From assembly GCA_965233535.1 (NCBI GenBank), contig OZ247489.1:254566-318565 (forward strand): a DNA stretch of 64,000 nt. Direction: 5' to 3'. The notes beneath the pieces are model-generated. The model was not told the DNA's origin, did no database searches, and saw only the letters and a list, made by a program, of their open reading frames with translations. Shown piece by piece: positions 3,491 through 61,634 of the stretch (positions are counted from its first letter, which is position 1; every line of letters starts with the position of its first letter). Source of the stretch: Rickettsiales bacterium (GTDB lineage Bacteria > Pseudomonadota > Alphaproteobacteria > CAJXXZ01 > 1604HC). The position numbers and the translations under genes are program-made.

Positions 3491-3615
3491 AATATAAATA
3501 TAACTGAGAAATGTTGAAAATTAATTAACTGGAATAAGAAATAATTTGGTTGAGAAAATTAAAATTAACTTTTATTGAGCTTACAAATCGCAAAAATGTT
3601 TGGTATGAATTGATC

Positions 3616-3635
3616 ATCAAATATTTAAATTTGAT
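3616..3635 (-). terminator. Conserved AT-rich inverted repeat just downstream of family A copy 2 (possible terminator)
   Basis: ATCAAAT-atttaa-ATTTGAT; same element at 5466-5489. Confidence 0.4.
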
Positions 3636-3644
3636 AAAGTTGAT

Positions 3645-5330: not shown

Positions 5331-5465
5331 AATATAAATATAACTGAGAAATATTATAAATTAATTAAAGTAGATTGAAAGTTATAAATCAATATGGTTG
5401 AAAAAATTATATGGAATGTACTTTTATTAAATTTAAAAGCATAAAAAATGCTTAGTATGATTTGA

Positions 5466-5489
5466 TTATCAAATATTTAAATTTGATAA
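5466..5489 (-). terminator. Conserved inverted repeat downstream of family A copy 3
   Basis: TTATCAAAT-atttaa-ATTTGATAA. Confidence 0.4.
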
Positions 5490-5496
5490 AGTTTTT

Positions 5497-7278: not shown

Positions 7279-7500
7279 AATATAAATAGTACTGGCAAAA
7301 TGTTATAAAAGTATGAATTATTTTGAATTAATAAGAACAGTTATGTATAGCTGCAGTAATTTTGGATATCTGCCTGTAAAACTATATGTTTAGTATGATT
7401 TTATCTTCCTGATAAAGTGAAAATTATGAAAAAATATTTGGTATGAGTTGTTTGATAAGATATTATGAAATATCTTTATGCTATTTGTTTGTTGAAAATC

Positions 7501-9156
7501 TTATGGTTGCGGAGTTAATGATTTGTTTATTAAGGCTTGTAAATTAGGGGCTTTATTACGTAAATTTGCATAAGTAACTAATGCAGCGCATAAATTAAAA
7601 AAGTCCTTACTTTCAAGAGTGTCAAGCTTTGCTTTAGATACAGGGTTTGTTGAAAGCATTTCTTTGACCTTTTCATTGAGGGATAGAATGTTAAAATTAT
7701 TTTGTAGTGTATATATTAGATCATTTCTATCATTTCTCAACATTGCTTTTAGTGGATCTGGCATTTTTGAGTTATACAAACTAGTACCAAATAATGTTTC
7801 ATATCTTATATCAGAGTTTGTCAATGAATTTATATTAAGACTTTTACCTTCAAAGTATGAAGCGTTTGGAAATGTCCAGTCATTATCAAATAAATTAACT
7901 ACCATTTTATACTGTCCACTTATGTTTGTTGTATTGGCTTGAAATAGGGAAGTGTGATCAGCAAAATATAATTCATCCAAATACATAGCATCTGCTTCTT
8001 CTTCAGAGGAATCAAAATTATGTATTTGATACTTATTAATACGGTTAATCAAATTATCTCTAAATTGATCACTATTTGGGATTGCTTTAATTTTTTGTAT
8101 AAGATTTGCTATTGCGTTTGTTAGTGCTTGATAGTTATATATGAATTTTTCTGTGTTTTTAACATAGTGATTGGCAATTCTATCATGTATAAGGTTCATA
8201 TTATTATTAATTAAGTGAGCTGTTGAATCATTTGAATGAGTTTCTATGCTATAATTTAAAAATATAGATATTTCACATTTTTCTTTTAATGATTCTTTTG
8301 AATGATAATTTTTTGTATAATGCATAAAGTGAGGCAGAGTTGATAAGAATCCTTTGTATAGAGGTAAACTTGGATGTGAAGTGATATCTTTGGCTATTAT
8401 ATAGTGGAGATGGGCAGTGATTTGAGCTTCAGCCATATTTGATTGTGGAGGGACAACTTTTGTCATGTAATCTATGAATGCATTTATTTTCCCCTCTATA
8501 TATTGTTCAGCAGTATTATGGCCTATAGGAGAGAATAATATTTTTATTAAATCATGATGTAGTATATCTGCATCTTTCTTCATTTTAGTTGCAACATTAA
8601 CCTGTTCAAATGTTTCCTCGAAAGTTTTATTTATAAATGCTGGAGTAAGCTGTTTTTCTTTTGCAAATTTCACGTGATTGAATGTTCCAGGATTTTCCAA
8701 AGCTTCTTTAAGTGCAGCTCTTCTTAATGGAGCAACATGAAATTTAGATTTGAATTCTGACTTTTGTTCATTAGTATCAATTGAATTTTTTAATGCATCA
8801 GTAAATAAATGATAACCCTTACTTGGTTTGTCTACTAAAGATTTTAAGTCGTTTGATTTCTTGATAATGTGATATGAAACCACTTCTGTATTGTGCAAAG
8901 ATACTAAAATATCAGCTTTTTCAGTTTGCGTACCTTTCACATCAAAATCATGTAAAATCATTCCTTTTAACTTTGCTCCTTGAAGATTTTGCATTATTTG
9001 TTTGATTTGATCTGAATTTACTGCAGTAAATATATCTGTCATTGCTCTATGCTCAAAGTTCATTCTATGATCACTCATATTTTTTATGACATTCGCTGCA
9101 TCTGCACTGCAATTAGCGCTGATCGCTACTAATGCTATTTTCAAAATGTTTTTCAT
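7501..9156 (-). CDS. Secreted orphan protein, family A, copy 4
   Basis: MKNILKIALVAISANCSAD; KLKGMIL, ILVSLH, PLR, FDSSEE, GTSLYNS. Confidence 0.85.
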   Translation of the reverse strand: MKNILKIALVAISANCSADAANVIKNMSDHRMNFEHRAMTDIFTAVNSDQIKQIMQNLQGAKLKGMILHDFDVKGTQTEKADILVSLHNTEVVSYHIIKKSNDLKSLVDKPSKGYHLFTDALKNSIDTNEQKSEFKSKFHVAPLRRAALKEALENPGTFNHVKFAKEKQLTPAFINKTFEETFEQVNVATKMKKDADILHHDLIKILFSPIGHNTAEQYIEGKINAFIDYMTKVVPPQSNMAEAQITAHLHYIIAKDITSHPSLPLYKGFLSTLPHFMHYTKNYHSKESLKEKCEISIFLNYSIETHSNDSTAHLINNNMNLIHDRIANHYVKNTEKFIYNYQALTNAIANLIQKIKAIPNSDQFRDNLINRINKYQIHNFDSSEEEADAMYLDELYFADHTSLFQANTTNISGQYKMVVNLFDNDWTFPNASYFEGKSLNINSLTNSDIRYETLFGTSLYNSKMPDPLKAMLRNDRNDLIYTLQNNFNILSLNEKVKEMLSTNPVSKAKLDTLESKDFFNLCAALVTYANLRNKAPNLQALINKSLTPQP

Positions 9157-21773: not shown

Positions 21774-22721
21774 ATGTACAAAAAAATATTAGTAGCTGCA
21801 AGTGCTTTGCTTTTAAATAACATTCAATCATCAAGTTTGAAGTTTGCTGTTGCTGCTGGTCCAGTGGCTAGATTTGGAAATTATAAAATCAAAGGTTTTG
21901 ATACAAAACATGATGGAGATTTTCAATTAGCTGGAAAAACAATTGGAAGTTCAAAAGATAAAGAGCAAGATTTTACGCTAAAAAGTAAAACAGGTTACTT
22001 TGCAGGTAGATTCTCTGCTCACGTTGGTGCATTAAGTGTTGCTGGTGCAGATGTTTTTGCTAGAGTATTTGCTGATTTTGGAAATCACAAATCTTATCTT
22101 AATGATAAACATACATTAATAAAAGGTAGTGGCGGTAGTGGTAATTCAACTGGTAATGCTGGTGGAGGTGTAACTCCTGTAATTGACAATAGTGGCAACA
22201 ATGGCGGTGGAAATGGTGGCAACAATGATGATGCAATTAAAGCTGCTGCTATGGTTAGTGGAAAAGAAGGGGAAAAACCTACTAATGTTGGTTCTGACAC
22301 ACATAAAGCTTCATCAATTCTAGAGCGTCAAAACATATGGCGCGTGGGTTTTGGTCCAGAAGCTACTTTCTGTGTTTCAGATTCTATGAACTTGTCAGTA
22401 TCTGCTGGTCCTTTGTTTGCAAACTTAAAGCAAACTTTGACAACTGAGGCTTCATCATACAGCAAAAGCTGTGTTCAATACGGTGGTTTTGTTTCTGTAA
22501 TCGGACGTATGTTCTTTGGTGAAGAAAATAACTTCTTTGCATATGGAGAAGCAATGGGAACTTTTCTTGCTTCAAAAGATCTAAAATCTGAGAAAGTCAC
22601 TTTGTCAGGAGCTATATCAGGAGGTAGTGCTCACTCAGAAACTACAGACATTACATTTAAACATGCTAAATCATTCGGCGGTAATGTATCTGTTGGTGTA
22701 GGTTACTATCACCACGCTTAA
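21774..22721 (+). CDS. Probable outer-membrane beta-barrel surface protein with a Gly/Asn-rich loop
   Basis: Signal peptide, alternating beta-strand pattern, C-terminal VSVGVGYY, SD GAGG. Confidence 0.65.
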   Translation: MYKKILVAASALLLNNIQSSSLKFAVAAGPVARFGNYKIKGFDTKHDGDFQLAGKTIGSSKDKEQDFTLKSKTGYFAGRFSAHVGALSVAGADVFARVFADFGNHKSYLNDKHTLIKGSGGSGNSTGNAGGGVTPVIDNSGNNGGGNGGNNDDAIKAAAMVSGKEGEKPTNVGSDTHKASSILERQNIWRVGFGPEATFCVSDSMNLSVSAGPLFANLKQTLTTEASSYSKSCVQYGGFVSVIGRMFFGEENNFFAYGEAMGTFLASKDLKSEKVTLSGAISGGSAHSETTDITFKHAKSFGGNVSVGVGYYHHA

Positions 22722-35151: not shown

Positions 35152-35631
35152 ATGAACAAAAACATTTTTTATATTTTTATATGCGTTGCTTTGATGAATA
35201 GCACTGAGTCTGTAGGCGATGCAATAATATTAGAGAGCGAAACATTGCTTGAAATCGCTGATGAAAAAGTAGCAGAACAAGAAATGATGGCTTTGAAAGT
35301 GCAATTTGAATCTGACTTTGAAAAAGCACAAACAGAAGGTTTTGCAGAATTTAAAGAAAGTATAGAACATTTCAAAGTAGGCAGTGATATAAAAGAATTT
35401 ACAGATAAAGTTAACGAATTTGGGAAAAATATCGAAAAATCACTGGAAGATAGACTTAATGAATTTAGTGAAGTACTTGAGTCAGCAGGTAAGAAATTTT
35501 ACGCAAATAAAGCAAAAGCTTGGAGAGAAGAAGCAAAAAGTTTAGAAGAGAAGCTAAAACAGTCTCAGCTTAAGTGCGAGTATATTCAAGGATATCATGA
35601 TTCTTTAGCACGTTTGATCAATCAAGCCTAG
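35152..35631 (+). CDS. Secreted helical orphan protein, family B, copy 1
   Basis: Signal MNKNIFYIFICVALMNSTES shared with the next gene; acidic amphipathic helices. Confidence 0.75.
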   Translation: MNKNIFYIFICVALMNSTESVGDAIILESETLLEIADEKVAEQEMMALKVQFESDFEKAQTEGFAEFKESIEHFKVGSDIKEFTDKVNEFGKNIEKSLEDRLNEFSEVLESAGKKFYANKAKAWREEAKSLEEKLKQSQLKCEYIQGYHDSLARLINQA

Positions 35632-35760
35632 GAGAAAACAATTAGGCTTGTTTCACAAATCAAAATTTAGACTTAGAGATTTGAATAAAACAAAACTTAA
35701 TTTCATTTTATTTTTACTTAAAGTTAATTCTCAAAGTATAAGATTGCTTTAGGAGGATAA

Positions 35761-37563
35761 ATGAATAAAAACATTTTTCTTATTTTTATATGTACAGTTT
35801 TAATGAACAAGACTGAATCTAAAATAATCAGACCATCAGGATCAAGTAGTGGAAACAATTCTAGCAGTAGTTCTGATTCTGATAGATTAGCAAGGGAGCG
35901 TGCTGAACAAGCAAGGTTAGCTCAAGAGAGAGCAGCTAGGTTAGCAAGAGAAGCAAGAGAAAAAGTTCAAAGAGAACAAGCAGAAGCTGATGCAGCAAAA
36001 GAAAGAGCTCAAAGAGAACAAGTTGAAGCTGATAGAGCGAAATTAGCTCAAGCGGAAGTTGATAGAGTAGCAAAAGAGCAAGCGGAAGCAAGGAAGCAAG
36101 CTGTCGCAAAAGAACAAGCAGAAGCTGATGCAGCAAAAGAAAAAGCTCAAAGAGAACAAGCTGAAGCTGATAGAGCGAAATTAGCTCAAGCTCATGCTGA
36201 TAGAGTTGCAAGGGAGCAAGCGGAAGCAAGGAAGCAAGCTGTCGCAAAAGAACAAGCAGAAGCTGATGCAGCAAGAGAGCAAGCTTTAAGAGAGCAAGCG
36301 GAAGCTGATAGGGTAAAAGAGCAAGCTAGAAAAGCACAAATCGAAGCTGACAAAGTATATAATGAAAAGAGAGAGAAAGCTTTGCAAGAACAAGCAGAGG
36401 CAGACAGAGCAAAAGAGAAAGCTAGAAAAGAGCAAATTGAAGCTGAACAAGCAAAATTAGCTCAAATTCGTGCAGATAACTTAGCAAGAGAGCGTGCTGA
36501 GCAAGCTGAACAACTTAGATTAGACAATATGCGAAGTCAAGAAGAGCGTATAGCACGATACAAGATTGAATTAGAAATGCAAGCAAAAGTGAGGCAAGAA
36601 GAACAAGCAAGAGCAGATAAATTAGCAGCTGAGCAAGCAGCAGCACAAGCTAAAAAAGATAATAGTTGGTCAGGTATGTTTAAGTCTGGAGCTCAAAAAG
36701 CTTACGCACTTGCTACTTCACCCGAAGGTAAAGCAGCTTATGCATACGCAAACTCACCAGAAGGTAGAGAAAATATAAGTACAGCAGCTGGATATGCAAA
36801 AGCAGGTGCAGGACATGCTGCAAGTGCTGCCAAGACTGGTGCTGGATATACTTCAAGCGCAGTAAAAGCAGGAGCTGGATATGTTAAAGGAAGTAGTAGT
36901 TCCTCTAAACAATCAGGCAGTAATTCATCTTACTCTAATGTTTCCCAATCTGATTCAGATGATGGATGGGTTAATGTAACAAATAAAAAACCACTAACAA
37001 AGGGTAATTTAGACTTATTGCAAGATGATATTTCTAATGATCACAGATCATCACGCTCATCATCAGGAGTTTATGTTTCAAGACCTGCATCATCAAGTTC
37101 AAGATCAGTTGCTGCACCTAAGGCAAAATCAATAGCCTCCTCTTCAGGTTTTAAGTCATTTCCAGAGTCTGTAAAATCAATGCAATCAGTAAAATCAACT
37201 GTTTCAGCAGCATCAACTGCTTCTACACCATCTAGAGCAGCATCAGCGGCATCAGCAGGTTCAGGTGTGTCTACAACAAAGTCAAAAGGAATGCTTTCAG
37301 CAGACATAATAAAAATGGCTGATAGAATGTATCCTGGTACTAAATCAAAATATACTGCATCAACATCATCATCAGGAGTTAATGTAGTAAAGAAAGCAGT
37401 ATCTGAGAAGCCTAATGCATCAAAAGTTGCACAACCGAAATCTGCATCAGATCTTGTTCATGTGAGCAAGCAAGGAGAGGCAAGTCAATCAAATAGTGGT
37501 ATGTTTAATTCAGCTAAAAATGCAGCTACAAATATGTTTAGTGGAATTAAGAAATTTTGGTAA
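35761..37563 (+). CDS. Secreted coiled-coil/Ser-rich orphan protein, family B, copy 2
   Basis: Signal MNKNIFLIFICTVLMNKTES, SD AGGAGG; EQAEA helical repeats, then a Ser/Ala-rich tail. Confidence 0.85.
   Translation: MNKNIFLIFICTVLMNKTESKIIRPSGSSSGNNSSSSSDSDRLARERAEQARLAQERAARLAREAREKVQREQAEADAAKERAQREQVEADRAKLAQAEVDRVAKEQAEARKQAVAKEQAEADAAKEKAQREQAEADRAKLAQAHADRVAREQAEARKQAVAKEQAEADAAREQALREQAEADRVKEQARKAQIEADKVYNEKREKALQEQAEADRAKEKARKEQIEAEQAKLAQIRADNLARERAEQAEQLRLDNMRSQEERIARYKIELEMQAKVRQEEQARADKLAAEQAAAQAKKDNSWSGMFKSGAQKAYALATSPEGKAAYAYANSPEGRENISTAAGYAKAGAGHAASAAKTGAGYTSSAVKAGAGYVKGSSSSSKQSGSNSSYSNVSQSDSDDGWVNVTNKKPLTKGNLDLLQDDISNDHRSSRSSSGVYVSRPASSSSRSVAAPKAKSIASSSGFKSFPESVKSMQSVKSTVSAASTASTPSRAASAASAGSGVSTTKSKGMLSADIIKMADRMYPGTKSKYTASTSSSGVNVVKKAVSEKPNASKVAQPKSASDLVHVSKQGEASQSNSGMFNSAKNAATNMFSGIKKFW
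35974..36273 (+). repeat. 138-bp (46-aa) intragenic tandem repeat, ~2.2 copies
   Basis: gaacaagcagaagctgatgcagca starts at 35974, 36112 and 36250. Confidence 0.9.
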
Positions 37564-38868: not shown

Positions 38869-40119
38869 ATGAGCGTTTCGCAAGAATTATTAAAACAAAT
38901 ATATATATCAGGGACACAGTTACTGAAAAAAAAGTTAAGTAAGTATGATTGGGATGTTAATTCACGTGATTCTCAAAAAATCCCTCAATGGGATTGGAGA
39001 ATTTGGCTTTTATTAGCGGGTAGAGGTTTTGGGAAAACTAGAACAGGTTCAGAAGCTATTAGATCTTTTGTAGATCAAGGGTATAAAAACATTTGCTTGC
39101 TTGGAAAAAATAAAGAAGAAGTTAGAAAAATCATGATAGAAGGGGAAAGTGGAATTCTTAGTGTTTATCCAGAACATGAAAAGCCACAATTTTACCCATC
39201 TCAAAATGTTTTAAAATGGAAAAATGGAGCTATAGCTCAAATACATAGTGCTGACTCTTATGAAAGCTTACGTGGTCCTCAATTTGATTTGGCTTGGGTT
39301 GATGAGTTAGCAAAGTTTAGTAATTTAAATGAAACTTGGGATCAACTTATGATGACTATGCGTCTTGGTATTCCGAAAATAATTGTTACTACAACTCCTA
39401 AGCCAATTCAAAAGCTGCATAATCTTATGTCTCGAAAAGATACCCACTGTACTAGAGGCAGTACGATGGAAAATGAAAAAAATCTTGCAAAAGAGTATGT
39501 GGATTATATCAATAATGAATATGCTCATACAGAATTTGGAAAGCAAGAAATATATGGAGAATTGCTTGATAAAGTTAGCATGTGGTCTCATAAAAACATT
39601 TCATATAAACAAATTGAATTAAGTAAATTATCTCAAATTATTATTGCAATAGATCCAGCTGTAACTAGTCATGAAAAAAGTGATGAGACTGGAATTATAG
39701 TATTGGGGAAAGCAGATAATGAAATTTTTATTTTAGAAGATAGAAGTGGTAAGTGGAAAATGTCTGATTTTTCTCGAATTTGTGTTGAATTGTGTAATAA
39801 ATATAAAACTAAAGAAGTTGTTGCAGAAATCAATCAAGGTGGAGATATGGTAGAGCAAATGATCAAAATGGAAGACTCAACGATACAATTTCATCCTGTT
39901 AGGTCTATGAACAATAAAGTTGTTCGAGCGCAGTCTGTTGTATGTTTTTACGATCAGAAGAAAGTATTTCATTACGAGAAGTTTGATATTTTGGAAGAGC
40001 AAATGAGTGCTTTTCCTTGTGTTGCTAAATCTCCAGATAGAGTTGATGCATTGGTTATTGGAGTGAATTACTTAAATAAACGTAAGAATGAAGTTGCTGG
40101 GTGGTTCTTAAATTTATAA
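38869..40119 (+). CDS. Terminase large subunit, gene-transfer-agent type
   Basis: Walker A AGRGFGKTR, LRGPQFD.AW.DELAK, RLG, TTTP; nuclease IDPAV/DETGI, E.NQGG, SPDRVDAL. Confidence 0.9.
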   Translation: MSVSQELLKQIYISGTQLLKKKLSKYDWDVNSRDSQKIPQWDWRIWLLLAGRGFGKTRTGSEAIRSFVDQGYKNICLLGKNKEEVRKIMIEGESGILSVYPEHEKPQFYPSQNVLKWKNGAIAQIHSADSYESLRGPQFDLAWVDELAKFSNLNETWDQLMMTMRLGIPKIIVTTTPKPIQKLHNLMSRKDTHCTRGSTMENEKNLAKEYVDYINNEYAHTEFGKQEIYGELLDKVSMWSHKNISYKQIELSKLSQIIIAIDPAVTSHEKSDETGIIVLGKADNEIFILEDRSGKWKMSDFSRICVELCNKYKTKEVVAEINQGGDMVEQMIKMEDSTIQFHPVRSMNNKVVRAQSVVCFYDQKKVFHYEKFDILEEQMSAFPCVAKSPDRVDALVIGVNYLNKRKNEVAGWFLNL

Positions 40120-43472: not shown

Positions 43473-43938
43473 CATTTTTGTGCTCTATGCTCACAATTAA
43501 ATTGCATAATATACCAATATTAATAAGCATTTTGCTTATATAAATATCACTTAAAATTATTTCCTAAATTAAATTAATGCTTGATCAATTAAATTATGAT
43601 TTAAAAGAGTGTGTATTAATTATAAAATAAAAAAAAGGTAATTAATAAAGTTTAATGAAAGTGATAATTATGAAAATAAATCAAGAATTGAATTTCAAAA
43701 TAACAAATGTATTGTTAAATATAAAATCAAAAGAACTCAACTATAGAAAAGTAAAAAGAGAGATTAATCAGGTTACAAACATTTATAAAGCAGTAAAAAA
43801 AAGTGTAATATGAAAATTGCCAAAACACAGCATGTTCTGAATATGTGCTTCACAATGCTTTTTATATTGTTAAAAACAGTTCAACATTACTTAAGAAATG
43901 TTTTTTGGAAAAATTGTATTAATATGTTATGGTGTCTC

Positions 43939-46599
43939 ATGAGTAAAGTTAACGTTTCTTTATTATCTTTGTGTAGTGCATTGATTTTACAATTAAGTGT
44001 TGAATGTAACGTAGATAAATTCGATGATGAGTGTATAAATACGATTGCTCGATCTATTGTAAAGCATAATGATGAATGCCATTCATCGGTTGCAGAATAT
44101 AATAAAATACAAAATACAAAACATTCCTTAGTTGGATATGTAGTTAATGGCATGTTAGCTACTAAAGCTGGTATTTATAATACTGCAAATCAAAGTCAAT
44201 CATATAATATAGAGGAAATCATATTACCAAATGGAAAAAGAGTATATTTGCTCAAAAATAGCCAATCTATAGATTTTGTACGTCAATGTGTATCTTATTC
44301 TCAATTTATAAACAATGCGATCAGTAATAATATTGATTCTAATGAATTTAGGAGATCGTGCAATAATCTTAAAAATGCTCTTCATGCATCCGCAATAGAA
44401 AAATTAAATCAAAGTGAATGCGAAGCAAGAGAGGCAATTGTTAATGAATTCGACAAACCATATAAAAGTGAACATATTGAATATGCTAATGTAGAAGAAA
44501 AGTTAAGGTGCTCACAGTTAAAATATATTATATTTGTAGAGAACACACAAAACACATCAGATATAGAAAAAATATCTAGATTTGCATTTGGTACAGAAGA
44601 AGCAGAGGTAAGACAAACTATTGCAACTACAAGACAAGAGGAGATGTCAAATTTGATGGGTTTGTTTAAATTCACTAGAAATGATATTGCGGAAAAAGAA
44701 ACAAGGGAAGCAATTTTAATCGAAGAGAGAGACGAAATAAAGAGAATATTCGCTAAATTTAAATTTAATGTAAAAGAAATAGAGGCAAGGAAAGCAATTT
44801 CAAGTGAAGAGAAAAAAACAAGAAGCATAATGTCAAAAACATTGGACTTGATTATTGAAAAAGCAAAAGCAGCACAGGCTATTTTAACTGAGGAGCAAAA
44901 GGAGCAAGCAAGTATATTTAATGATTATGAAAACAACTTATTGGTATTGAAACTTAATGCGGTGCTAGCTGAAGAACACATAGCAAGAATGGGAATACAT
45001 GTAGAGTTAGAAAGGCAAATCGTTTCAAATCAAGAGCAAAAGGCAAGAGAAAGAATGTTCAATGAGTTTAAACTGATTGTTAAAAAAATAGAAGCAAGGA
45101 AAGCAATTTTAATTGAAGAGGAAAATAAAAGAGTAAGTGATGGTGTGAAATTCGCTGCAGAGCAAGATGAAATGTTAGCTGTGCACAAAGCAGAAGAACT
45201 TAAGATTTTAGCTGCAGAGCGTAATCGTGAAGATGAAATACGTAAGCACAATAAAGAGAAACAGCGATTATTTGTAAAAAATGAAATTGAAAAAAGAGTA
45301 ACATTAGGAAAGATTGAAGAAATTACAAAATATAAATTATTAGAAGAACTTGATAAAAAAATATTAGAAACTGAAGAATCAGACGCAAAAAACAAATTAA
45401 AAATAAAGGCAATGGAAAGAGAAATCGCATTGCATGATAGTGAAATCATAACATTTTATGAAGGCAACGAATCTGTTCTTGATGAGCTTGTAAATAATTT
45501 GACAAAAGCTCAGGATAAATTGCAGTTATACTTGAATATGAATAGAGGTTTTGTTAATGAAGAAAGAAAATCAGAACTTATAGAAAGTATTAATATTAAG
45601 AAGTTAACTACAGAATTATATAAAAAGAATGAATTAGTGACTAATTGGTTGAAAGATGAAGAAAATACATTGAAAAGCAAAAAAGATTCTTTATCTGACA
45701 AAGAATTTTTATCAGAGTTAGTTGAAATAATTAATAGTAAAAATTTACATTTAGCAGAGTTTAATATGTTTGCTGAAGCAATATCAGAGTATGTGAAAAA
45801 AATGAAAAAACAAGAAGAGATTCGTAAAAAAGCTGAGTCTGAACAAAAAACAGTATTGGAAGATAATATATTGCAAATGGTGACAAAAGAAGCAATGGAG
45901 AGAGAAAATTTACAGAGTGAAATAAATCAACAATATAATATAGAAATGGAAGCTATAAAGGAAAAATTTCATACAAATAAAGATCATATAGAATATATCA
46001 ATTCTAATTATCAAAGTAATGATTTAGATAAATTAGTATCAGCGCAAGTTCATATAAATGAGTTAATAAGCCCAATTGAAGTAAGTGGATTACAAATGAA
46101 AGGTTATGACAGTTTAAGTCAAAAGAGTGAAATTATTAATGATAGAATAACTTTGATACAGAAAAGAAATTCAAAAAAAGAAGCTAGAAGAAAAGTAATT
46201 AATGAAGAAAAAGAGTTGCGAAAAGAAATCAAAAAGGAGATATGTGAGGGTTTTAATCAATTGCAAGAAAATCAAACTATACAACTTAAAGAATTGAAAG
46301 AAAGAATGCGTATAAAAGATTTGATACCTGAAGTATGGGATGTTGCATACAATGAAGGAAATAGCATAGATGCAATAAGTGGAGCATTAGTGCGGTTAGA
46401 TGAAGCGCATAAAAAAGATTTGTTGAATGCTGAAACAAGAGATGAATTGCGTGTATTATTAAAGATGCAATTAGAGCAGCATGACATTAAAGCAGATCAT
46501 GAAAATAATAGATGTGTGGAGGATAAGGTAAAAGAGGATGATTCTAGCAATTTTAGGAAGAGAGATTTAACAAAAAAAGTTTATCGTAGAAAATATTGA
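43939..46599 (+). CDS. Secreted long coiled-coil orphan protein, family C, copy 1
   Basis: Start moved to MSKVNVSLLSLC by homology with the next gene and a shared upstream tatgttatg(g/a)t; repeated EARxAIxxEE. Confidence 0.8.
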   Translation: MSKVNVSLLSLCSALILQLSVECNVDKFDDECINTIARSIVKHNDECHSSVAEYNKIQNTKHSLVGYVVNGMLATKAGIYNTANQSQSYNIEEIILPNGKRVYLLKNSQSIDFVRQCVSYSQFINNAISNNIDSNEFRRSCNNLKNALHASAIEKLNQSECEAREAIVNEFDKPYKSEHIEYANVEEKLRCSQLKYIIFVENTQNTSDIEKISRFAFGTEEAEVRQTIATTRQEEMSNLMGLFKFTRNDIAEKETREAILIEERDEIKRIFAKFKFNVKEIEARKAISSEEKKTRSIMSKTLDLIIEKAKAAQAILTEEQKEQASIFNDYENNLLVLKLNAVLAEEHIARMGIHVELERQIVSNQEQKARERMFNEFKLIVKKIEARKAILIEEENKRVSDGVKFAAEQDEMLAVHKAEELKILAAERNREDEIRKHNKEKQRLFVKNEIEKRVTLGKIEEITKYKLLEELDKKILETEESDAKNKLKIKAMEREIALHDSEIITFYEGNESVLDELVNNLTKAQDKLQLYLNMNRGFVNEERKSELIESINIKKLTTELYKKNELVTNWLKDEENTLKSKKDSLSDKEFLSELVEIINSKNLHLAEFNMFAEAISEYVKKMKKQEEIRKKAESEQKTVLEDNILQMVTKEAMERENLQSEINQQYNIEMEAIKEKFHTNKDHIEYINSNYQSNDLDKLVSAQVHINELISPIEVSGLQMKGYDSLSQKSEIINDRITLIQKRNSKKEARRKVINEEKELRKEIKKEICEGFNQLQENQTIQLKELKERMRIKDLIPEVWDVAYNEGNSIDAISGALVRLDEAHKKDLLNAETRDELRVLLKMQLEQHDIKADHENNRCVEDKVKEDDSSNFRKRDLTKKVYRRKY

Positions 46600-46704: not shown

Positions 46705-49023
46705 ATGAATCAAGCAATTATTTCTTTGTTGTCTTTGTGTCCTGTATTTCAACTTTATGCAGGTAATTTAGAGTTAATAAACATTCCCAAACATGATGTT
46801 ATAAAATCTATTTCTAAAAATAATATTGATTGTCATTTGGCGTTAGAGAAGTTTAACAAAACAACAGACAAGAAGAATTCTTTAATTGGTTATATAATTG
46901 GTGATTTATTAGTTAAAGAAGAGGGAATTTTAAATATTTCAGATATTGCTTTTGATGATTTTTTTGACTCGCACACTGTAGATGGTCGTAATGTTGTTGT
47001 ATTAAAAGATCATAAAGTTGTGGATTTACTAAAAATGAATTTTGATCAAGATAGTCATTGCGCCCAACTTGCTAGTCATGCGATTAGAAATAGGAAAAAT
47101 TTTGATTTACAATATGATTCAGTTTGTAACGAATATTGTTCTTTAAATAGTGATGCATTGAAGAATTTTTTTCACAATCAATATGATTCTACTCAAAGTG
47201 TAAATAATAATTCATCATTTCAATATAATGAGAATAGTCGCACATTTAATTTTCAATATGTGCAAACTTCTGGTGCAGGGGCCTTATGCTCTTTTGCGTC
47301 AATATTAAATTATGTGAAAGATATGAATGATAATAGAATCGAATTTAAAAGTGATTTTGCTAAAGAAGTAAATCAGTTAGCAGAAAAACACCAATACCAA
47401 ACTGATGGAGAAGCGCAAGAAGAGTTGCGTAGTTTGATTTCTAATAAAATAGAAACATTTAACTTTGGTGAAAATCAAACTAAAGCAAGCGAGATAGTTT
47501 TCAAGTATTTAACTTCAATATTAACCGATGACATTCGCGATAATATAATAGAAGATTTAGAAAATAGAACTATAAATGATAATCAGGAATTTCTTATTTC
47601 TATATTGCGTAATATTAAAGCAGGGGACTATGAGGCATTTGATAAAGAGTTATTAAAACTGAACACTTTTATATGCTCTGAATGTCTTCCTTATATTACA
47701 TATAATGATCCATATATGATTCAACTAGTAGCTTTGATGATGAATGTTCCCTGTAATGTTTTTCAGATTGATAGGAATATAGAATATGCAAATTCGAAAA
47801 ATATGTTTAATTTGAGAAAAATACGTAGTGATCAATTTAGTGATGATGAAAAAGCTTTGAATGTTTTGTTAGATGATCATCATTTTACATATTTGAAGGC
47901 AGTGGATTTCTTATGTCTAGAAGCCAAAGTGCATACTGAGCAATTGCAAGGTGGAGCAGGCGTTGAAGTGATCAATGAAAATCAGCGAATGAATAATCGT
48001 AATCTGCAAGCAGCAATTCAAGCAAGTTCAGAAGAAGAGAAAGATAGAGCAAAAAGACTTAAGAAAGAAGAGAATGATTTAGAAGAGGCAAAGCGCAAAA
48101 GTTTAGAAGAGTCAAGTTATATGCAAGGTGGTGTAAAAAACAATACAGTTATTAAAGTGAATGCATGTTCCACATTTAAACTAGAAAATGGAGCCTCCAC
48201 ATTCACTCATGCAAATACTCCAGATATAGGTAATTTATGTTCCTTTGCAATATTGTCAGATTATATGAGAGATATGAATAATCAAAAGGCTGTCTTTGAA
48301 AATGAGTTTGCTAAAAAAGTTATGAACTTAGCAAAAAGTCATAAATTCAACACAAGAACTGAGACAAATAAAGAAAAAGATGGAAAATTACAAAAAGCAT
48401 TACGTAGTTTGATTGCTGATGAAATTAAAGATGCAAGTCTTGGTACAAAAGGAATCATATTAGCCAATGAATATATAAAAGATCTTTTGGATGATGCAGA
48501 CAGACCTTCAAAAGGTATGTATGCAAAACTTCATAAAGTGATCGAAAAATTGGAAAGCAATATAAAAGTATTGGAAGAACGTTTCAAAAAACATTCTGAA
48601 GAAGAAAAAGAATTACCAATAGGGAAGCGTACACAATCAATTGAAACATTGGAAAAACTGCAAAGTGATAGGAAAATATTGGAAAAAATTCAGAAAATTG
48701 CTACTGATGGATATGAGGATAGCAATAATATTGATGTTAATTATTTTCAATTAATTTCTGTTTTATTGCCTTATACAACAATGAATAATTCGCATATAAT
48801 TCGCATAGTCGCATTGATGATGGATGTTGAGTGCAATGTTTTTATGTCTGACAAAAGTAGCAGAGGTGAGGGTAATGAATTTGATATGAAGTTAAGTGAT
48901 TATGATCATGAATTTAATGAAATAATGCATACTGATCCAAACACTTTAAACATTTTGCTTTATAATGAACTGGATTATAAAGAAACTCCAAATCACTATA
49001 CATATTTAAAACCAATAAAATGA
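46705..49023 (+). CDS. Secreted protein, family C, copy 2: two OTU-like cysteine protease domains separated by two UIM-like motifs (putative deubiquitinase effector)
   Basis: Internal duplication G.LCSF...LRSLI...VALMM.V.CNVF...LN(V/I)LL...H(F/Y)TYL; LQAAIQAS and EENDLEEAKRKSLEE between the copies. Confidence 0.7.
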   Translation: MNQAIISLLSLCPVFQLYAGNLELINIPKHDVIKSISKNNIDCHLALEKFNKTTDKKNSLIGYIIGDLLVKEEGILNISDIAFDDFFDSHTVDGRNVVVLKDHKVVDLLKMNFDQDSHCAQLASHAIRNRKNFDLQYDSVCNEYCSLNSDALKNFFHNQYDSTQSVNNNSSFQYNENSRTFNFQYVQTSGAGALCSFASILNYVKDMNDNRIEFKSDFAKEVNQLAEKHQYQTDGEAQEELRSLISNKIETFNFGENQTKASEIVFKYLTSILTDDIRDNIIEDLENRTINDNQEFLISILRNIKAGDYEAFDKELLKLNTFICSECLPYITYNDPYMIQLVALMMNVPCNVFQIDRNIEYANSKNMFNLRKIRSDQFSDDEKALNVLLDDHHFTYLKAVDFLCLEAKVHTEQLQGGAGVEVINENQRMNNRNLQAAIQASSEEEKDRAKRLKKEENDLEEAKRKSLEESSYMQGGVKNNTVIKVNACSTFKLENGASTFTHANTPDIGNLCSFAILSDYMRDMNNQKAVFENEFAKKVMNLAKSHKFNTRTETNKEKDGKLQKALRSLIADEIKDASLGTKGIILANEYIKDLLDDADRPSKGMYAKLHKVIEKLESNIKVLEERFKKHSEEEKELPIGKRTQSIETLEKLQSDRKILEKIQKIATDGYEDSNNIDVNYFQLISVLLPYTTMNNSHIIRIVALMMDVECNVFMSDKSSRGEGNEFDMKLSDYDHEFNEIMHTDPNTLNILLYNELDYKETPNHYTYLKPIK

Positions 49024-56539: not shown

Positions 56540-58183
56540 ATGAATAATAAAAAATTAATTAGTTTTGTGATGTCTGTATTTATGATTAGCTCAGTTAGAT
56601 CTGATGCTGAGTTTGATAGAAATTTAATTACAAAGTGTGATCATGCAGCATTGAATCATATGAAAACTGCTGACAATATTAAAGCTTCTATAGGTTCCAA
56701 CTCTACTTTGTTTTTTATGGACAATAAAGCAATACTTCATGCTAATAAAGATTTGAGTGATATTGGTGGAGAAGGTCTTCATGGTAAATATTTGATTTTT
56801 GATGAAGAAAAAGCTAAAGAGATTGCAGATTTAGTAGCAAATAACACAGCAGCTAGCGGACTGATTATATTAGCTTTAGATAAAATTATGAAGATTTATA
56901 ATGGTCAAGAAATCAAAAATGAATACACACATGAGGATGATCATGATAAAGTATTTTCAAATATAGCGTATAGTTTGTTTAATTCTGGAAGCATATTATC
57001 ATCTGAAGATAAATCTAAAGCATTAGAAGCTTTCTTAAGGGATCCTGAAACATATATCAAGATTAATATTAATACTTTAGAGGATGCAGATATTAAAGAA
57101 TTATTTGATTTTGTTAAAACTACATTTTATTTAGATCGTGACGATTCAGATAATGAATCTACAAAAAATAATTATGTCACAAAGCGTGATGCATTGCTTA
57201 ATGGTTTTGAAAGTTCAGACAGTGTTGATAGTTTTCAAGTTTTTGCACTTTATGTATTAGACAGGCTAAATAGCACGTGTCAAAAAAGTGTAACTGATAT
57301 GACTGAGCAAGATACATGGGCTTCTGATAACATTAAAGGCTCTATCAATGCAGCTACAGAAATGGTTGCAAAAAGAATTAAAGAAGCAGAAGAAGTGTTA
57401 GCAGCAGAAGCAGAAAAAGAAGAAGCTGATGCTAGTCCATCACCAGTAGCACCTGTGACTCCAACATCACCAGCAGGTTCAAATTCAAGCTTCAGTAGCG
57501 CATCTGGTTCAAATCCAGCTCCAGAAGCATCTGTGGCTCCAACATCACCAGCAGCAGAAGTTCAAGTAGCGCCATCAGCAGGTGAAGACCAAGGTAATAA
57601 AGAAACTAAAAGTGAAAAAAGTGATTCAAATCCAAAAGACACATTGCTGGAAATTGCACCTAAAAATGATGAAAGCCCAAAAGCGGCATCTGAAGTTGGT
57701 GAAACTAAATTAGCTCCAAAAGCAAAGCAAGCAGCAAAATCTCAAGTTTCAACATCACCTACTCATTCAGCAAATGATGAAGGAACAACGGAAACAAAAA
57801 AAGCATCAGAAGCAATGGTAAATGAAAGTTCACCAGCGGTAGAAGAAGATGGTTCAGACGCTCCAGCAAAAGATGTTGCAGATACTTCTGCTTCAACATC
57901 ATCTGCAACAGGCGTTGATTCAAAGCCAGAAACAGAAGAAGTTCAAGTAGCGCCAGTATCTCCAGTTAAGAAAAATTCAATACAACCTCTGTCACAAGAA
58001 GAAAAAAAGATGGAGAGTCAATTAAGAACAGGATTGAGTAAGTATCATAGCTCTTCTAAGAAAGGTCCAGAGAAGCAAAAGAACAAAGAAGCATTACAAA
58101 AAATAATAAGAAAAGCAAAAGCAATGAATTCTGATGCAATGACAGCAATCTTAAACAAACAAGAATATGCATTTTTTTATTAA
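56540..58183 (+). CDS. Secreted orphan protein, family D, copy 1 (Ser/Pro/Ala-rich tail)
   Basis: Signal peptide; N-terminal ~240 aa homologous to the next gene. Confidence 0.85.
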   Translation: MNNKKLISFVMSVFMISSVRSDAEFDRNLITKCDHAALNHMKTADNIKASIGSNSTLFFMDNKAILHANKDLSDIGGEGLHGKYLIFDEEKAKEIADLVANNTAASGLIILALDKIMKIYNGQEIKNEYTHEDDHDKVFSNIAYSLFNSGSILSSEDKSKALEAFLRDPETYIKININTLEDADIKELFDFVKTTFYLDRDDSDNESTKNNYVTKRDALLNGFESSDSVDSFQVFALYVLDRLNSTCQKSVTDMTEQDTWASDNIKGSINAATEMVAKRIKEAEEVLAAEAEKEEADASPSPVAPVTPTSPAGSNSSFSSASGSNPAPEASVAPTSPAAEVQVAPSAGEDQGNKETKSEKSDSNPKDTLLEIAPKNDESPKAASEVGETKLAPKAKQAAKSQVSTSPTHSANDEGTTETKKASEAMVNESSPAVEEDGSDAPAKDVADTSASTSSATGVDSKPETEEVQVAPVSPVKKNSIQPLSQEEKKMESQLRTGLSKYHSSSKKGPEKQKNKEALQKIIRKAKAMNSDAMTAILNKQEYAFFY

Positions 58184-58347
58184 ATAATTAAATAGAAATT
58201 ACTCCTCACAATATATGTTTAATATTTACATAAACAAATATTAAAAAATTTGCCTATAAAATAAACATATAAGTTAATCAAATCACAATCATTACTTTTC
58301 TATAAATGAATTGATGAAAATTATACATGATTGTATTTGATGAATTC

Positions 58348-58376
58348 TTGATTTTTTATTAATTTCCTGTTAATCT
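58348..58376 (+). promoter_or_regulatory. Sigma70-like promoter (TTGATT-17-TAATCT) overlapped by a CtrA box TTAA-N7-TTAA (58359-58373)
   Basis: Same geometry as 56505-56533; -10 ends 6 nt before the GTG at 58383. Confidence 0.55.
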
Positions 58377-58382
58377 TGTCGC

Positions 58383-61300
58383 GTGAATAATAGAAAATTA
58401 ATTAGCTTGGTAGTATCTGTTTTAGCATCTAATGGTGTAAATGCTAAAAGTCAAGCTCTTGTTACCCGTTGTGATAAAGCAGCATCAGATTACATATCTG
58501 TGCAAGAAAATGCTGAAATTGCTAAAGGGTCAAATTCTATTTTATATTTTGATAATCAAAGTATAGTATTTCGTGCTAATAAGGAATTAAATTCTGATAA
58601 GCATAAATTAAGTAGTGGAGATTGTTTGATTTTTAATGATGAGCAAGCACAAAAAATTAAATTATTAATAGGTGAGATTAATATTAATAAACTTATTAAA
58701 TTAGCTTTAGATGAAATTATGAGCATTGCTAATTTTGAAACATTTAATGACCAAAGTATGCAAGGTGGGGCTGTTACTTTTGCATTTAATAATGCTGATG
58801 CTTTTGCTATTTCTAAATCTGAAGCTTTAAATCGATTGCTTAGTGCTGAAAATGGTATCAAAATGAGTAAAAACTTGTATGGTAAAGAATTGAAAACCAT
58901 GATTGAATTTATTAAAGATACATTTGATTTAGAAGGTGTAGATTTAACCAAATATAATATTCAAGAAAACACATTACAATTATTTATTGTGAAAAATGTA
59001 GAATTTATTTTAAGAGCACGCTCTACTGATGAAATAATTAATCAAATTGAAAGCAGCCAAAAACAAGAAGAAGCTGCAATTCAAATTCAAAGATTTTGGA
59101 GAAATAATTATCCAGTAAAATCAGAAGGTTTGACTTCTCGTTCTGATACAAATTTAAGCTCTCAATCAAGTGATATAGTTAAAGAATTAATTTCAGCAGG
59201 AACATCTACTGATGATATGGGGAGTGATCAAAATGATAGTCAAAGTGAAATTTATAAACACTTAATTCAAGAAGAAGACATAGAATACATGATGCGAAAA
59301 ATGATTGAGCGATTAGAAGAAGCTGAAGAAAAAGCAAAAATTGAAGCAGAAGCAAAAGTAGATCTAGAAGTTAAATTAGCATCTAATGCAGCAAAAGCAA
59401 AAGCAAGTTCAGAGAAATTATTAGAAGCGAAAGCTATCTCAGATGCAGAAATCAAAAGAATAACAGAAGAAAATTCAAAAGAGGCAGCAGATAGATTAGC
59501 AGAAGCTGAAAGAGCGAAAGCAGAAGCAGAATTATCACAAATAGCAAATAAAGAAATTCAAAAACAACTAGATACAGTTAAGAAATTAAATGAAGAGAAA
59601 GGTGAATTAGTAAAAGACAATGCAGAGATTCAAAAGCAATTGAAAGCTCAAGTGAATCTAGCAAATGCAGAGATTCAAAAGCAAGCAGTAGGTTTTGAAA
59701 AGCAATTAGCAGTGTTAGAAAAAACAAAAGAAGCGGCTGAAGCAAATGCAAGAAAATTAGAAGAAGCAGTAAGATTAGCTGAAAATGAAAAAGCAGAAAG
59801 TGCAAGACAATTTGAAGTTAAATTAGCATCTAATATGAAAAAAGCTGAAAAAGCAAATGCAGAGATAGAAAAGCAACAAGGTGTAGTTAAAAAATCAAAT
59901 CAAGAGAAAGATGAATTAAGTGAGCAATTAGGAGTGTCAAATAAAGAAAAAGAAGGATTAGCAAAGCAGTTACAAGCTAAATCAGAAGACGCTGAAGAGT
60001 TGAAAAATAATCATGCAATTCAAGTTGCAAAATATGAAGAGGATGCAACTAAAGCTAGAGAGCAATTAAAAGAAGCAAATGCTGAAAGTCAAAAAGCAAA
60101 GGCAAAATTGGAAGAAAAAGCTGAGGCATTGCAAGCTCAAGCAGCAGATGCAGCAAGATTAGCTGAAGAATCAAAAGCTAAAGCAGCAGTAGCTGAAATA
60201 GCGAAATCTAGTGCAGATGCAGAAATTCAAAAGCAACTGAAAGGTTTACAAGCGAAATTAGAAGCGTCAAAAAAAGAGGCTAAGCACAGTGCAGAGCAAG
60301 AAAAAAAAGAGAGAGAAAACATCGAGATAAGCACAAAGAACATGATGGCTGATTTTAAAAAAGAGATTAAAGAATTAGAGGCTAAAAATCAAAAACAAGC
60401 AAAAGAATTAGCAGCTGTAAAAGCAAATGCTGAATCAGAAGCAAAAGCAAGTTCAGAGAAGTTAGCTGCGGCAAATGCAGCTCATGACGCAGAAGTTGAA
60501 GCAGTTGAAGAAAATGCAAGAAAATTAGAAATGCAGTTATCAGTGTCAGAAAAAGCAAATGCTCAGACAGCAGAAGCAGCAAGGTTGGCTGAAGCAAATG
60601 CAAAGTTGGAACAGTCAAATCAAGAGAAAGATGAATTAGTAAAAGACAATGCAGAAAGTCAAAAACAACTGAAAGATTTACAAGCTAAATCAGCAGCGGA
60701 TGAAGAAAAGTTCAATCTAGTAAAGGTTGAAAATCAGAAAATTCAGACCGCAAAGGAAAATGCAAAAACATCTCATGATCTATATTTGAAAACAAAAGAA
60801 TCTGTAGAAAGTGATAGCGCTTATGCAGAAATCTCAGTTGAAGTGAAAGGGAATATTGATCAATATGTAGGAAATTTACAAAATGAAGCAGATGTTAGAT
60901 ACGAAACAAATAAATGTTTGAGAGATGCATTGACGGAAAAGGATATTTTGGCAATATTAATGAAGGAAACGAAAATGAAGCTTCAAAACGCAAAGACTTT
61001 TGAAGATATTGATGCTATTTTTGATGCTTCTGAAATAAGTAAGTTGTTGGGCAAAGTTAATTATAAGGAAAAAAAATTTTCCAACATTAAAAAGCAATTA
61101 ATTGAAAAGTTTAATGGAAAAACAGCAGAACAATGTAAAAACAATATGCCTAAGAGCGTTGGAATACAAGATGAAGGATATTGTAGCAAATTCTTTGAGC
61201 AACAAGTGAGTGGTATATCACAGTTAGCGTTTGAAAAATTGACTTATATGCAAGGTCAAGACATTCCTCAAGAAGAGTGGGAAAGTGAATTACAGTGTGG

Positions 61301-61634
61301 TATAATTACAAATAAATATCCCAAATTAGATAAAGAATTAGCTAGAAAAATATCAGTTGATATGTTGAAAATTGCCTTGATCAAAGAAAAAGATATGAAA
61401 AAAACAATATTCAAAGCATTAAAAAGTGTTGAAAATTCAGCAGATATAAAAAGCAAAGTAAAAGAATTGTTTGCAAATGCAAAAAATGCATTTAAATGCA
61501 AAAGTGAATTAGAATTGGCTAAAGATGAGCTTACCAGAAAATGGCATATTATTGCTGAAAAAACTACAATGCAAAAGGCAAATGAACAGTTGCAGAAAGC
61601 AAAGCAAGAAGCTCAAGAGAGATCCGAAGGCTAA
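58383..61634 (+). CDS. Secreted orphan protein, family D, copy 2 (IQ-like motif plus long coiled coil)
   Basis: MNNRKLIS signal; CD.AA, GSNS.L.F, ANK.L, LIF, LALD.IM shared with copy 1; AAIQIQRFWR. Confidence 0.85.
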   Translation: MNNRKLISLVVSVLASNGVNAKSQALVTRCDKAASDYISVQENAEIAKGSNSILYFDNQSIVFRANKELNSDKHKLSSGDCLIFNDEQAQKIKLLIGEININKLIKLALDEIMSIANFETFNDQSMQGGAVTFAFNNADAFAISKSEALNRLLSAENGIKMSKNLYGKELKTMIEFIKDTFDLEGVDLTKYNIQENTLQLFIVKNVEFILRARSTDEIINQIESSQKQEEAAIQIQRFWRNNYPVKSEGLTSRSDTNLSSQSSDIVKELISAGTSTDDMGSDQNDSQSEIYKHLIQEEDIEYMMRKMIERLEEAEEKAKIEAEAKVDLEVKLASNAAKAKASSEKLLEAKAISDAEIKRITEENSKEAADRLAEAERAKAEAELSQIANKEIQKQLDTVKKLNEEKGELVKDNAEIQKQLKAQVNLANAEIQKQAVGFEKQLAVLEKTKEAAEANARKLEEAVRLAENEKAESARQFEVKLASNMKKAEKANAEIEKQQGVVKKSNQEKDELSEQLGVSNKEKEGLAKQLQAKSEDAEELKNNHAIQVAKYEEDATKAREQLKEANAESQKAKAKLEEKAEALQAQAADAARLAEESKAKAAVAEIAKSSADAEIQKQLKGLQAKLEASKKEAKHSAEQEKKERENIEISTKNMMADFKKEIKELEAKNQKQAKELAAVKANAESEAKASSEKLAAANAAHDAEVEAVEENARKLEMQLSVSEKANAQTAEAARLAEANAKLEQSNQEKDELVKDNAESQKQLKDLQAKSAADEEKFNLVKVENQKIQTAKENAKTSHDLYLKTKESVESDSAYAEISVEVKGNIDQYVGNLQNEADVRYETNKCLRDALTEKDILAILMKETKMKLQNAKTFEDIDAIFDASEISKLLGKVNYKEKKFSNIKKQLIEKFNGKTAEQCKNNMPKSVGIQDEGYCSKFFEQQVSGISQLAFEKLTYMQGQDIPQEEWESELQCGIITNKYPKLDKELARKISVDMLKIALIKEKDMKKTIFKALKSVENSADIKSKVKELFANAKNAFKCKSELELAKDELTRKWHIIAEKTTMQKANEQLQKAKQEAQERSEG

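Follow-up and report, generated by a model that had tools for sequence, protein, structure and literature searches.

The window analysed here is a 64,000-nucleotide stretch of a Rickettsiales genome (contig OZ247489.1, positions 254,566 to 318,565), and the gene in question encodes a 772-residue protein, flanked by gyrA and one paralogue on one side and by dnaN on the other. An N-terminal module (N-module) is followed by two domains with a predicted OTU protease fold, and the linker between these carries two motifs resembling ubiquitin-interacting motifs (UIMs) (Table 1). The original prediction, made from the sequence alone, had described a secreted tandem OTU-like deubiquitinase (DUB) with two internal UIMs; its reading frame, the residues C195, H393, C512 and H764 and all of the motifs it quoted were found where it had placed them. 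That observation is confirmed, and its interpretation is partly supported. The interpretation favored here is that of an exported tandem OTU-fold protease in which the UIM-like pair grips Lys63-linked (K63) ubiquitin chains and the domains cut them, a reading that has, in our estimate, about an even chance of being correct.

Table 1. Features of the tandem OTU-fold gene and its upstream paralogue, in window coordinates (pLDDT, predicted local distance difference test; VIA, fold search)
Feature	Position	Strand	Basis
Whole gene, 772 aa: signal-like N terminus, N-module, OTU-fold domain 1, UIM-like linker, OTU-fold domain 2	46705..49023	+	
Hydrophobic N terminus, likely Sec signal peptide, residues about 1-19	46705..46761	+	hydropathy only
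N-module, about residues 20-160; common to the upstream gene and both homologues in the congeneric genome G002	46762..47184	+	
OTU-fold domain 1, residues 179-402	47239..47910	+	model pLDDT 80.2; VIA matches 1-32 OTU family
Cys195, predicted catalytic, start of first helix	47287..47289	+	
His393-Phe394-Thr395: predicted general base, aromatic gatekeeper, non-acidic third position	47881..47889	+	
UIM-like motif 1: L434, A437, I438, S441, E444; without N-terminal acids	48001..48039	+	
UIM-like motif 2: E455, E456, D458, L459, A462, S466, E469; Lys in place of the post-Ala hydrophobe	48067..48111	+	
OTU-fold domain 2, residues 497-772	48193..49020	+	model pLDDT 65.3; VIA matches 1-10 OTU family
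Cys512, predicted catalytic	48238..48240	+	
Long helical hairpin, about residues 606-668, domain 2 only	48520..48708	+	model and alignment
His764-Tyr765-Thr766: predicted general base, gatekeeper, third position	48994..49002	+	
Upstream paralogue: N-module, then long charged, likely coiled-coil region	43810..46599	+	sequence comparison

The two domains are homologous, as had been proposed: residues 176-400 and 491-772 align with 79/279 identities (28%; E 2e-22) in a pairwise alignment. When these domains are compared with the two copies found in G002, domains 1 and 2 form the closest pair (37% identity versus 23 to 32% for the other pairs). An assembly artefact was considered and rejected because the domains are only 37% identical and contigs agree, this DNA being identical in contigs of runs X1 (in one piece, and possibly the source of this DNA) and X4. 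No RNA run is listed as carrying it, and a promoter scan returned 37 promoters against 40.6 expected.

To assess the fold, AlphaFold2 models were built on a four-row alignment of domains 1 and 2 and the two G002 copies (predicted template modeling score 0.81 for domain 1) and compared by VIA against a library of 48,161 chains. For domain 1, ranks 1 to 32 are all OTU-family proteases (Z 9.7 to 5.0) with the whole model covered; the best match has a root mean square deviation (rmsd) of 3.0 Å over 128 aligned residues, and the first unrelated row appears at Z 4.9. These matches include nairovirus OTUs, SnOTU, wMelOTU, Otu2, Lot proteins, otubains and the A20 group. The domain 1 model has a helical insertion, and LotC and Ceg23 align with it over 168 to 172 residues at an rmsd of 4.5 to 4.6 Å. 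For domain 2, OTU proteins occupy ranks 1 to 10, the best at Z 8.9 and rmsd 3.0 Å over 129 aligned residues. Foldseek, a check that the original prediction had suggested, likewise ranks OTU-family DUBs first: these make up 37/37 of the PDB rows listed for domain 1, among them a few generically titled rows that we take to belong to the same family. In the viral library, places 1 and 3 go to giant-virus OTUs. The first ESM Atlas match, treated as a lead only, is a cluster that is 34% OTU (score 0.87). The OTU fold is thus highly probable for both domains on the strength of the models, and we file the protein as a divergent OTU-fold protease outside Pfam OTU; LotA has been described as likewise overlooked by profile search (PMC7396840). 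Horizontal acquisition from giant viruses or nairoviruses was rejected, since the fold scores of these groups lie within 1 Z of each other and give no indication of origin.

Although the four domains are only 23 to 37% identical, they share exactly one invariant Cys, at Cys195/512, and exactly one invariant His, at His393/764. In both models, the Cys begins a helix, the His begins the last core strand, and the Cys precedes the His. The residue following the His (His+1) is Phe or Tyr in 4/4 domains, forming a predicted aromatic gatekeeper; an aromatic beside the His has been used as a DUB hallmark (PMC10643670). The column containing R242 and R567 is Arg or Lys in 4/4 domains and is a candidate for supporting the Cys loop, a mapping made by sequence register only, and the four-domain comparison yields no conserved acid before the Cys. 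The models, the fold searches and the conservation pattern all support the proposal of a tandem OTU fold with these particular Cys and His residues.

The linker between the domains was examined with the pattern [LIMV]xxAxxxSxx[DE], which follows a published consensus (PMC5361193) and was applied after the motifs had been seen. Both cores fit the arrangement hydrophobe-x-x-Ala-x-x-x-Ser-x-x-acid (L434-A437-S441-E444 and L459-A462-S466-E469), and the ataxin-3 UIMs are described with the same register of Leu, Ala at +3 and Ser at +7 (PMC2951365). A single core is noise, since 24/730 genome open reading frames (ORFs) hold one; two cores occur in 1/730, this gene only. For core pairs with a spacing of 17 to 40 residues, the chance expectation is 0.08 ORFs per shuffled proteome (200 shuffles); shuffling the linker itself produces such a pair in 6/100,000 trials. 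The top two ESM Atlas clusters for the linker are UIM (0.77) and RAP80-UIM (0.76), again a lead only. No RAP80 sequence match for the linker was found in PDB or Pfam, and the UIM region used alone as a query recovered only itself among 49 candidates. Two scans with the Pfam UIM model found it in 0/1 and 0/5 genomes. Elsewhere in the window, single UIM-like cores were noted at residue 346 of a 1,083-residue member of the tandem orphan families described below and, after two acids, at residue 155 of a 315-residue orphan without a Pfam match (21774-22721, +).

The key alanines of the two motifs, A437 and A462, lie 25 residues apart, which on an ideal helix amounts to a rise of 37.5 Å and a turn of 340 degrees, and there is no Pro or Gly in residues 424-474; the charge pattern of a single alpha-helix is not above chance in the linker (4,345/20,000 shuffles). 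In human RAP80, the key alanines are given as Ala88 and Ala113 (PMC12118340), and the ubiquitin-binding centers lie 37.5 Å apart, an arrangement that fits K63 chains and excludes K48 (PMC2735176); 25 residues at 1.5 Å each yield precisely that distance. In USP25, a 9-residue spacer favors K48, and its shortening to 7 residues is described to move binding and cleavage toward K63 (PMC5361193); the UIM period of ataxin-3 is 20. It is plausible that both motifs are ubiquitin-interacting; if they bind ubiquitin, avidity for K63 chains is a specific prediction because the period equals the 25 residues of RAP80.

Relatives of the protein are few. A search with domain 1 against 1.84 billion representatives, spanning all protein lengths, gave 2 matches, the protein itself and one G002 protein, and the four-domain profile, run in a set of 5.8 billion at lengths other than those of a single domain, gave 3, the protein and the G002 pair. 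Among 13 genomes of the order, matches are confined to 2, the genome of the window (G000) and the congeneric G002. In G002, the same gyrA-dnaN slot holds two neighboring genes, each encoding a hydrophobic N terminus, the N-module and one domain, the two domain copies being 29% identical. The stretch before dnaN in G001, G003, G004 and G006 contains neither the domain nor the N-module. Homologues were absent from metagenome contigs (0/284 pattern matches) and viral contigs (0/62). Pfam OTU matched 0/13 genomes of the order and also no control, so that this silence is not proof of absence. The N-modules are closer within genomes (E 8e-14 and 8e-20) than across genomes (8e-5 to 0.012). Together with domains 1 and 2 being the closest domain pair, this suggests that each lineage underwent its own duplication, which in G000 took place within a single gene and in G002 yielded two genes; alternatively, gene conversion may have produced the same pattern.

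The N-module is also common to the upstream gene (E 8e-11), whose probable true start is the Met of codon 44. The paralogue does not contain an OTU-like domain, and the domain profile finds no second genome ORF below E 0.089; a degenerate OTU in the paralogue was accordingly rejected, the profile being silent there. In the place of the OTU domains, its charged region contains repeated E-[AT]-R-x-A-I-x-x-E-E units (three by pattern). Signal-like hydrophobic N termini are present in this paralogue and in both G002 homologues as well. The signal peptide of the original prediction is seen only as a hydrophobic N terminus, judged by hydropathy. Elsewhere in the window, a lone phage-terminase-like gene (window 38869-40119, +) lies beside ssb and gyrA and is syntenic in G002; it is presumably a gene-transfer-agent relic. 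The pre-dnaN slot itself is occupied in every relative by different, unrelated genes of secreted type, for example, in G003, a 939-residue protein consisting mostly of five-residue Glu/Pro/Ala/Lys repeats (L022:2960-5779, -).

The bacterial genome (G000) is a single contig of 619,361 bases with 30.4% GC, and genomes of the same order span 0.4 to 0.8 Mb. It encodes two secretin matches, an ATPase of the type II secretion/type IV pilus kind, the type VI secretion protein TssC, three ATP/ADP translocases and numerous orphan proteins that have hydrophobic N termini and are arranged in tandem families; no ubiquitin gene of its own was found. A gene set of this kind is described for the Holosporaceae endosymbionts of protists (10.1101/719211), from which we infer an endosymbiont of Holosporaceae-like type. 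Described members of the lineage inhabit the host cytoplasm (PMC11909080), where ubiquitin marks are reported to lead to autophagy (PMC13720258).

Three more tandem orphan families with hydrophobic N termini and no Pfam or NCBIfam match lie in the window (1784-9156, -; 35152-37563, +; 56540-61634, +). A 312-residue orphan with a hydrophobic N terminus (L025:1075-2010, -, equal to G000:C1:114574-115509) is a candidate ubiquitin or ubiquitin-like protein (UBL) protease of the CE clan, with His199-Trp200, Asp214 and Gln...Cys254 in CE-clan order and a weak Pfam Peptidase_C48 match under the cut-off (E 0.0065). Among the 13 genomes, its 40%-identical homologue occurs only in G002, the same distribution as that of the OTU gene. 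In addition, 4/401 genomes of the class carry a ubiquitin-like domain very near eukaryotic ubiquitin but without the Gly-Gly end (L017:1495-1716; L018:126-1331, -; L019:1187-2488, +; L020:1489-1707, -). In L017 to L019, a signal-like N terminus precedes this domain, and in L018 and L019, what resembles an autotransporter-type barrel follows it, as judged by eye.

The mechanism that we propose starts from the observed domain duplication, the invariant Cys and His and the motif spacing. Both domains very probably adopt the OTU fold. The protein would probably be exported by Sec and then pass into the host cytosol by a type II-like step, and it is similarly probable that ubiquitin isopeptides are cleaved by one or both domains, with Cys195/His393 or Cys512/His764 serving as a dyad that has no acidic third residue. 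The secretin and type II secretion/type IV pilus ATPase genes, TssC, the ATP/ADP translocases, the orphan families and the candidate CE-clan protease provide supporting context for this mechanism. Binding of ubiquitin by the linker is somewhat favored. More tentatively, the linker may form one continuous helix with two binding faces 37.5 Å apart on the same side, in which case neighboring ubiquitins of a K63 chain would be bound and both catalytic domains biased to K63. The likely purpose would be to strip the K63 ubiquitin marks through which a bacterium inside a cell is directed to autophagy. The most far-reaching version, namely, that a RAP80-style K63 ruler arose recently and de novo between two copies of a profile-invisible OTU subfamily with a Cys-His dyad, in a 619-kb endosymbiont, as the first DUB of its lineage, is doubtful.

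Several observations weigh against this interpretation. Of the domain 2 VIA rows, 14/50 are OTU, and the other 36/50 are unrelated and match the inserted helices. Z values of 9 to 10 are modestly above the 7 to 8 that the tool typically gives to models without a clear match; the argument for the fold is built on the consistency of the family and the full coverage of the model. In Foldseek, all matches stay short of E 0.001 (best 0.038, 0.010 and 0.0053), and the ESM Atlas scores fall inside the range reached by shuffled proteins. Sequence searches of Pfam (including its OTU family), NCBIfam and PDB gave no relevant match for the protein, its domains or the four-domain profile, and a Cys-loop profile found nothing relevant in the same libraries. 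The canonical OTU Cys loop follows a D-G-N-C-type consensus; here, the loop is G-[N/A]-L-C, one residue off, and the Pfam OTU score (PF02338) is below the cut-off with no loop of that type, so the protein is not filed there. The His+2 residue is Thr or Ser in 4/4 domains, not Asp or Asn, although most OTUs are described with an acid at this position (PMC7396840). This does not exclude activity because SnOTU is reported active with Leu there (PMC10643670), and A20-type OTUs are described as deviating at this third triad position as well (PMC7396840). By sequence register, the Trp that grips the ubiquitin Gly-Gly appears to be replaced by Tyr (Y333) in domain 1 and by Met in the other three domains, and the Glu that contacts ubiquitin Arg74 appears to be replaced by a hydrophobic residue. 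Moreover, the OTU-fold proteins ChlaOTU and wPipOTU are reported to lack DUB activity in vitro (PMC7396840).

On the same side are the irregularities of the linker and of export. Motif 1 has no leading acidic run, which motif 2 does possess (E455, E456 and D458); conversely, motif 2 has Lys463 at the position of the bulky hydrophobe that follows the Ala, which Ile438 fits in motif 1. Pfam UIM (PF02809) calls neither, hence the name UIM-like, and both G002 homologues are without any core, so that there is no conservation evidence for UIMs. The two UIMs of the original prediction are thus plausible as far as the cores and the low-scoring ESM Atlas clusters go, but not at the level of Pfam or of the full consensus. 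Finally, a Sec signal alone leads to the periplasm only.

Among the alternatives, it is possible, if on the unlikely side, that the domains perform different jobs, either acting on distinct linkages as in LotA, as the original prediction had suggested, or with one active and one only binding. Domain 2 has the 60-residue helical hairpin, a longer His loop and a different Cys loop, G002 also retains two divergent copies, and LotA provides a precedent; however, no residue-level evidence bears on linkage choice, and both domains retain the Cys, the His and the gatekeeper. Two linkage specificities, in particular, are unsupported: the domains arose by internal duplication and are still 37% identical, and the 25-residue period points to one shared K63 ruler. 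A division of labor is, in any case, compatible with a K63-gripping tandem protease rather than exclusive of it. It is also unlikely that the protein is an active tandem OTU DUB whose linker serves simply as a charged, helical spacer or binds ubiquitin through just one motif, chain choice coming from the catalytic domains and their insertions. The silent Pfam model, the consensus element missing from each motif, the coreless G002 homologues and the 24 single cores among the 730 ORFs favor such a spacer, as does the description of Lot-class OTUs that bind ubiquitin via inserted helical domains (10.1101/2022.05.11.491541). Against it, a pair of cores arises in only six of the 100,000 linker shuffles, yet here it occurs within an OTU-fold protein, at the RAP80 period and with UIM clusters on top in ESM Atlas.

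The partly replaced ubiquitin-tail positions also leave room for a UBL substrate. An OTU-fold protease for NEDD8, SUMO, ATG8, UFM1 or another host protein, merely localized to ubiquitin marks by the UIM-like pair, would be consistent with the shifted Cys loop, the non-acidic His+2 and the replaced Trp and Glu positions, and nairovirus OTUs whose structures were determined with ISG15 are among the closest folds. This is nonetheless improbable, given that the gatekeeper, kept in all four domains, fits any Gly-Gly tail including that of ubiquitin and that the bacterial OTUs described target ubiquitin (PMC13720258). Least probable is a protein not directed at the host, that is, a periplasmic or surface OTU-like cysteine protease or a decaying orphan: the Sec-type N terminus and the patchy distribution in two of 13 genomes would suit it, but the frames are intact, the Cys and His are invariant in four divergent copies, the bacterium itself lacks a ubiquitin gene, and ubiquitin-reader-like motifs make sense only in a host.

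Bacterial OTUs are already known, among them LotA, an effector with two, and so are tandem UIMs in eukaryotic DUBs. Relative to the original prediction, the new element is the RAP80-like spacing of 25 residues, which predicts avid K63 binding rather than two specificities. The claim that the architecture is undescribed in bacteria stands for tandem-UIM effectors within the literature searched, which consisted mostly of non-subscription papers and left the supplementary annotation table of 10.1101/719211 outside: no bacterial tandem-UIM effector and no DUB of this lineage was found. The term "UIM" is absent from the main text of PMC7396840, PMC13720258, PMC12501173, PMC10643670 and the LotA preprint (10.1101/2022.05.11.491541), and the string "ubiquit" is absent from the main text of 10.1101/719211 and PMC11909080. 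The targets of the secreted proteins of reduced protist symbionts are described as unknown (10.1101/719211), and the present analysis names a candidate host pathway together with residue-level tests. If the interpretation is true, a 0.6-Mb genome spends genes on editing host ubiquitin, and a ubiquitin-based antibacterial defense in the host is therefore implied. For ubiquitin biology, the protein would represent a profile-invisible OTU subfamily that apparently works with a dyad, and it may contain the first chain ruler made of tandem UIMs in a bacterium. Bacterial DUBs with a linkage bias are, in addition, useful reagents.

Compared with known systems, the individual domains most resemble SnOTU, wMelOTU, nairovirus vOTU and giant-virus OTUs, which are the best fold matches (Z 8.5 to 9.7) and share the Cys-before-His order; SnOTU is also described without a polar third residue. 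They differ from these single-domain OTUs by a structural-alignment identity of 9 to 14%, the G-[N/A]-L-C loop, Thr or Ser at His+2, a larger helical insertion and the tandem arrangement. The linker resembles RAP80 in having two L-xx-A-xxx-S-xx-E cores with key alanines 25 apart and no helix breakers between them, whereas RAP80 is a eukaryotic adaptor for a separate DUB, and the pair here lies in cis between two catalytic domains, each motif being off-consensus once. USP25 and ataxin-3 are closer in that tandem UIMs in cis are described to influence which chains a DUB prefers (PMC5361193), but they have USP or Josephin folds with one catalytic domain, and their reported periods differ (20 in ataxin-3; a 9-residue spacer, K48, in USP25). 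Coxiella EmcB and Orientia OtDUB likewise combine a catalytic domain with an accessory ubiquitin-binding module (PMC12501173); in these, the modules are described as folded helical domains rather than UIM helices, and there is one catalytic domain. The nearest precedent for the overall layout is Legionella LotA, in which two OTUs in one effector have been described (PMC13720258). LotA (Lem21) is among the fold matches and similarly has two OTU-fold domains in one bacterial protein, with helical insertions in the OTU core; Lot-class OTUs are described with a helical A-UBD of about 100 residues in variable region 1 (10.1101/2022.05.11.491541). There is, however, no sequence similarity. The LotA domains differ in linkage choice and possess inserted A-UBDs and a C terminus that binds phosphatidylinositol 3-phosphate, and Lot-class OTUs are delivered by the Dot/Icm type IV system. 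In contrast, the protein described here is a 37%-identical duplicate with a Sec-type N terminus and UIM-like motifs between its domains.

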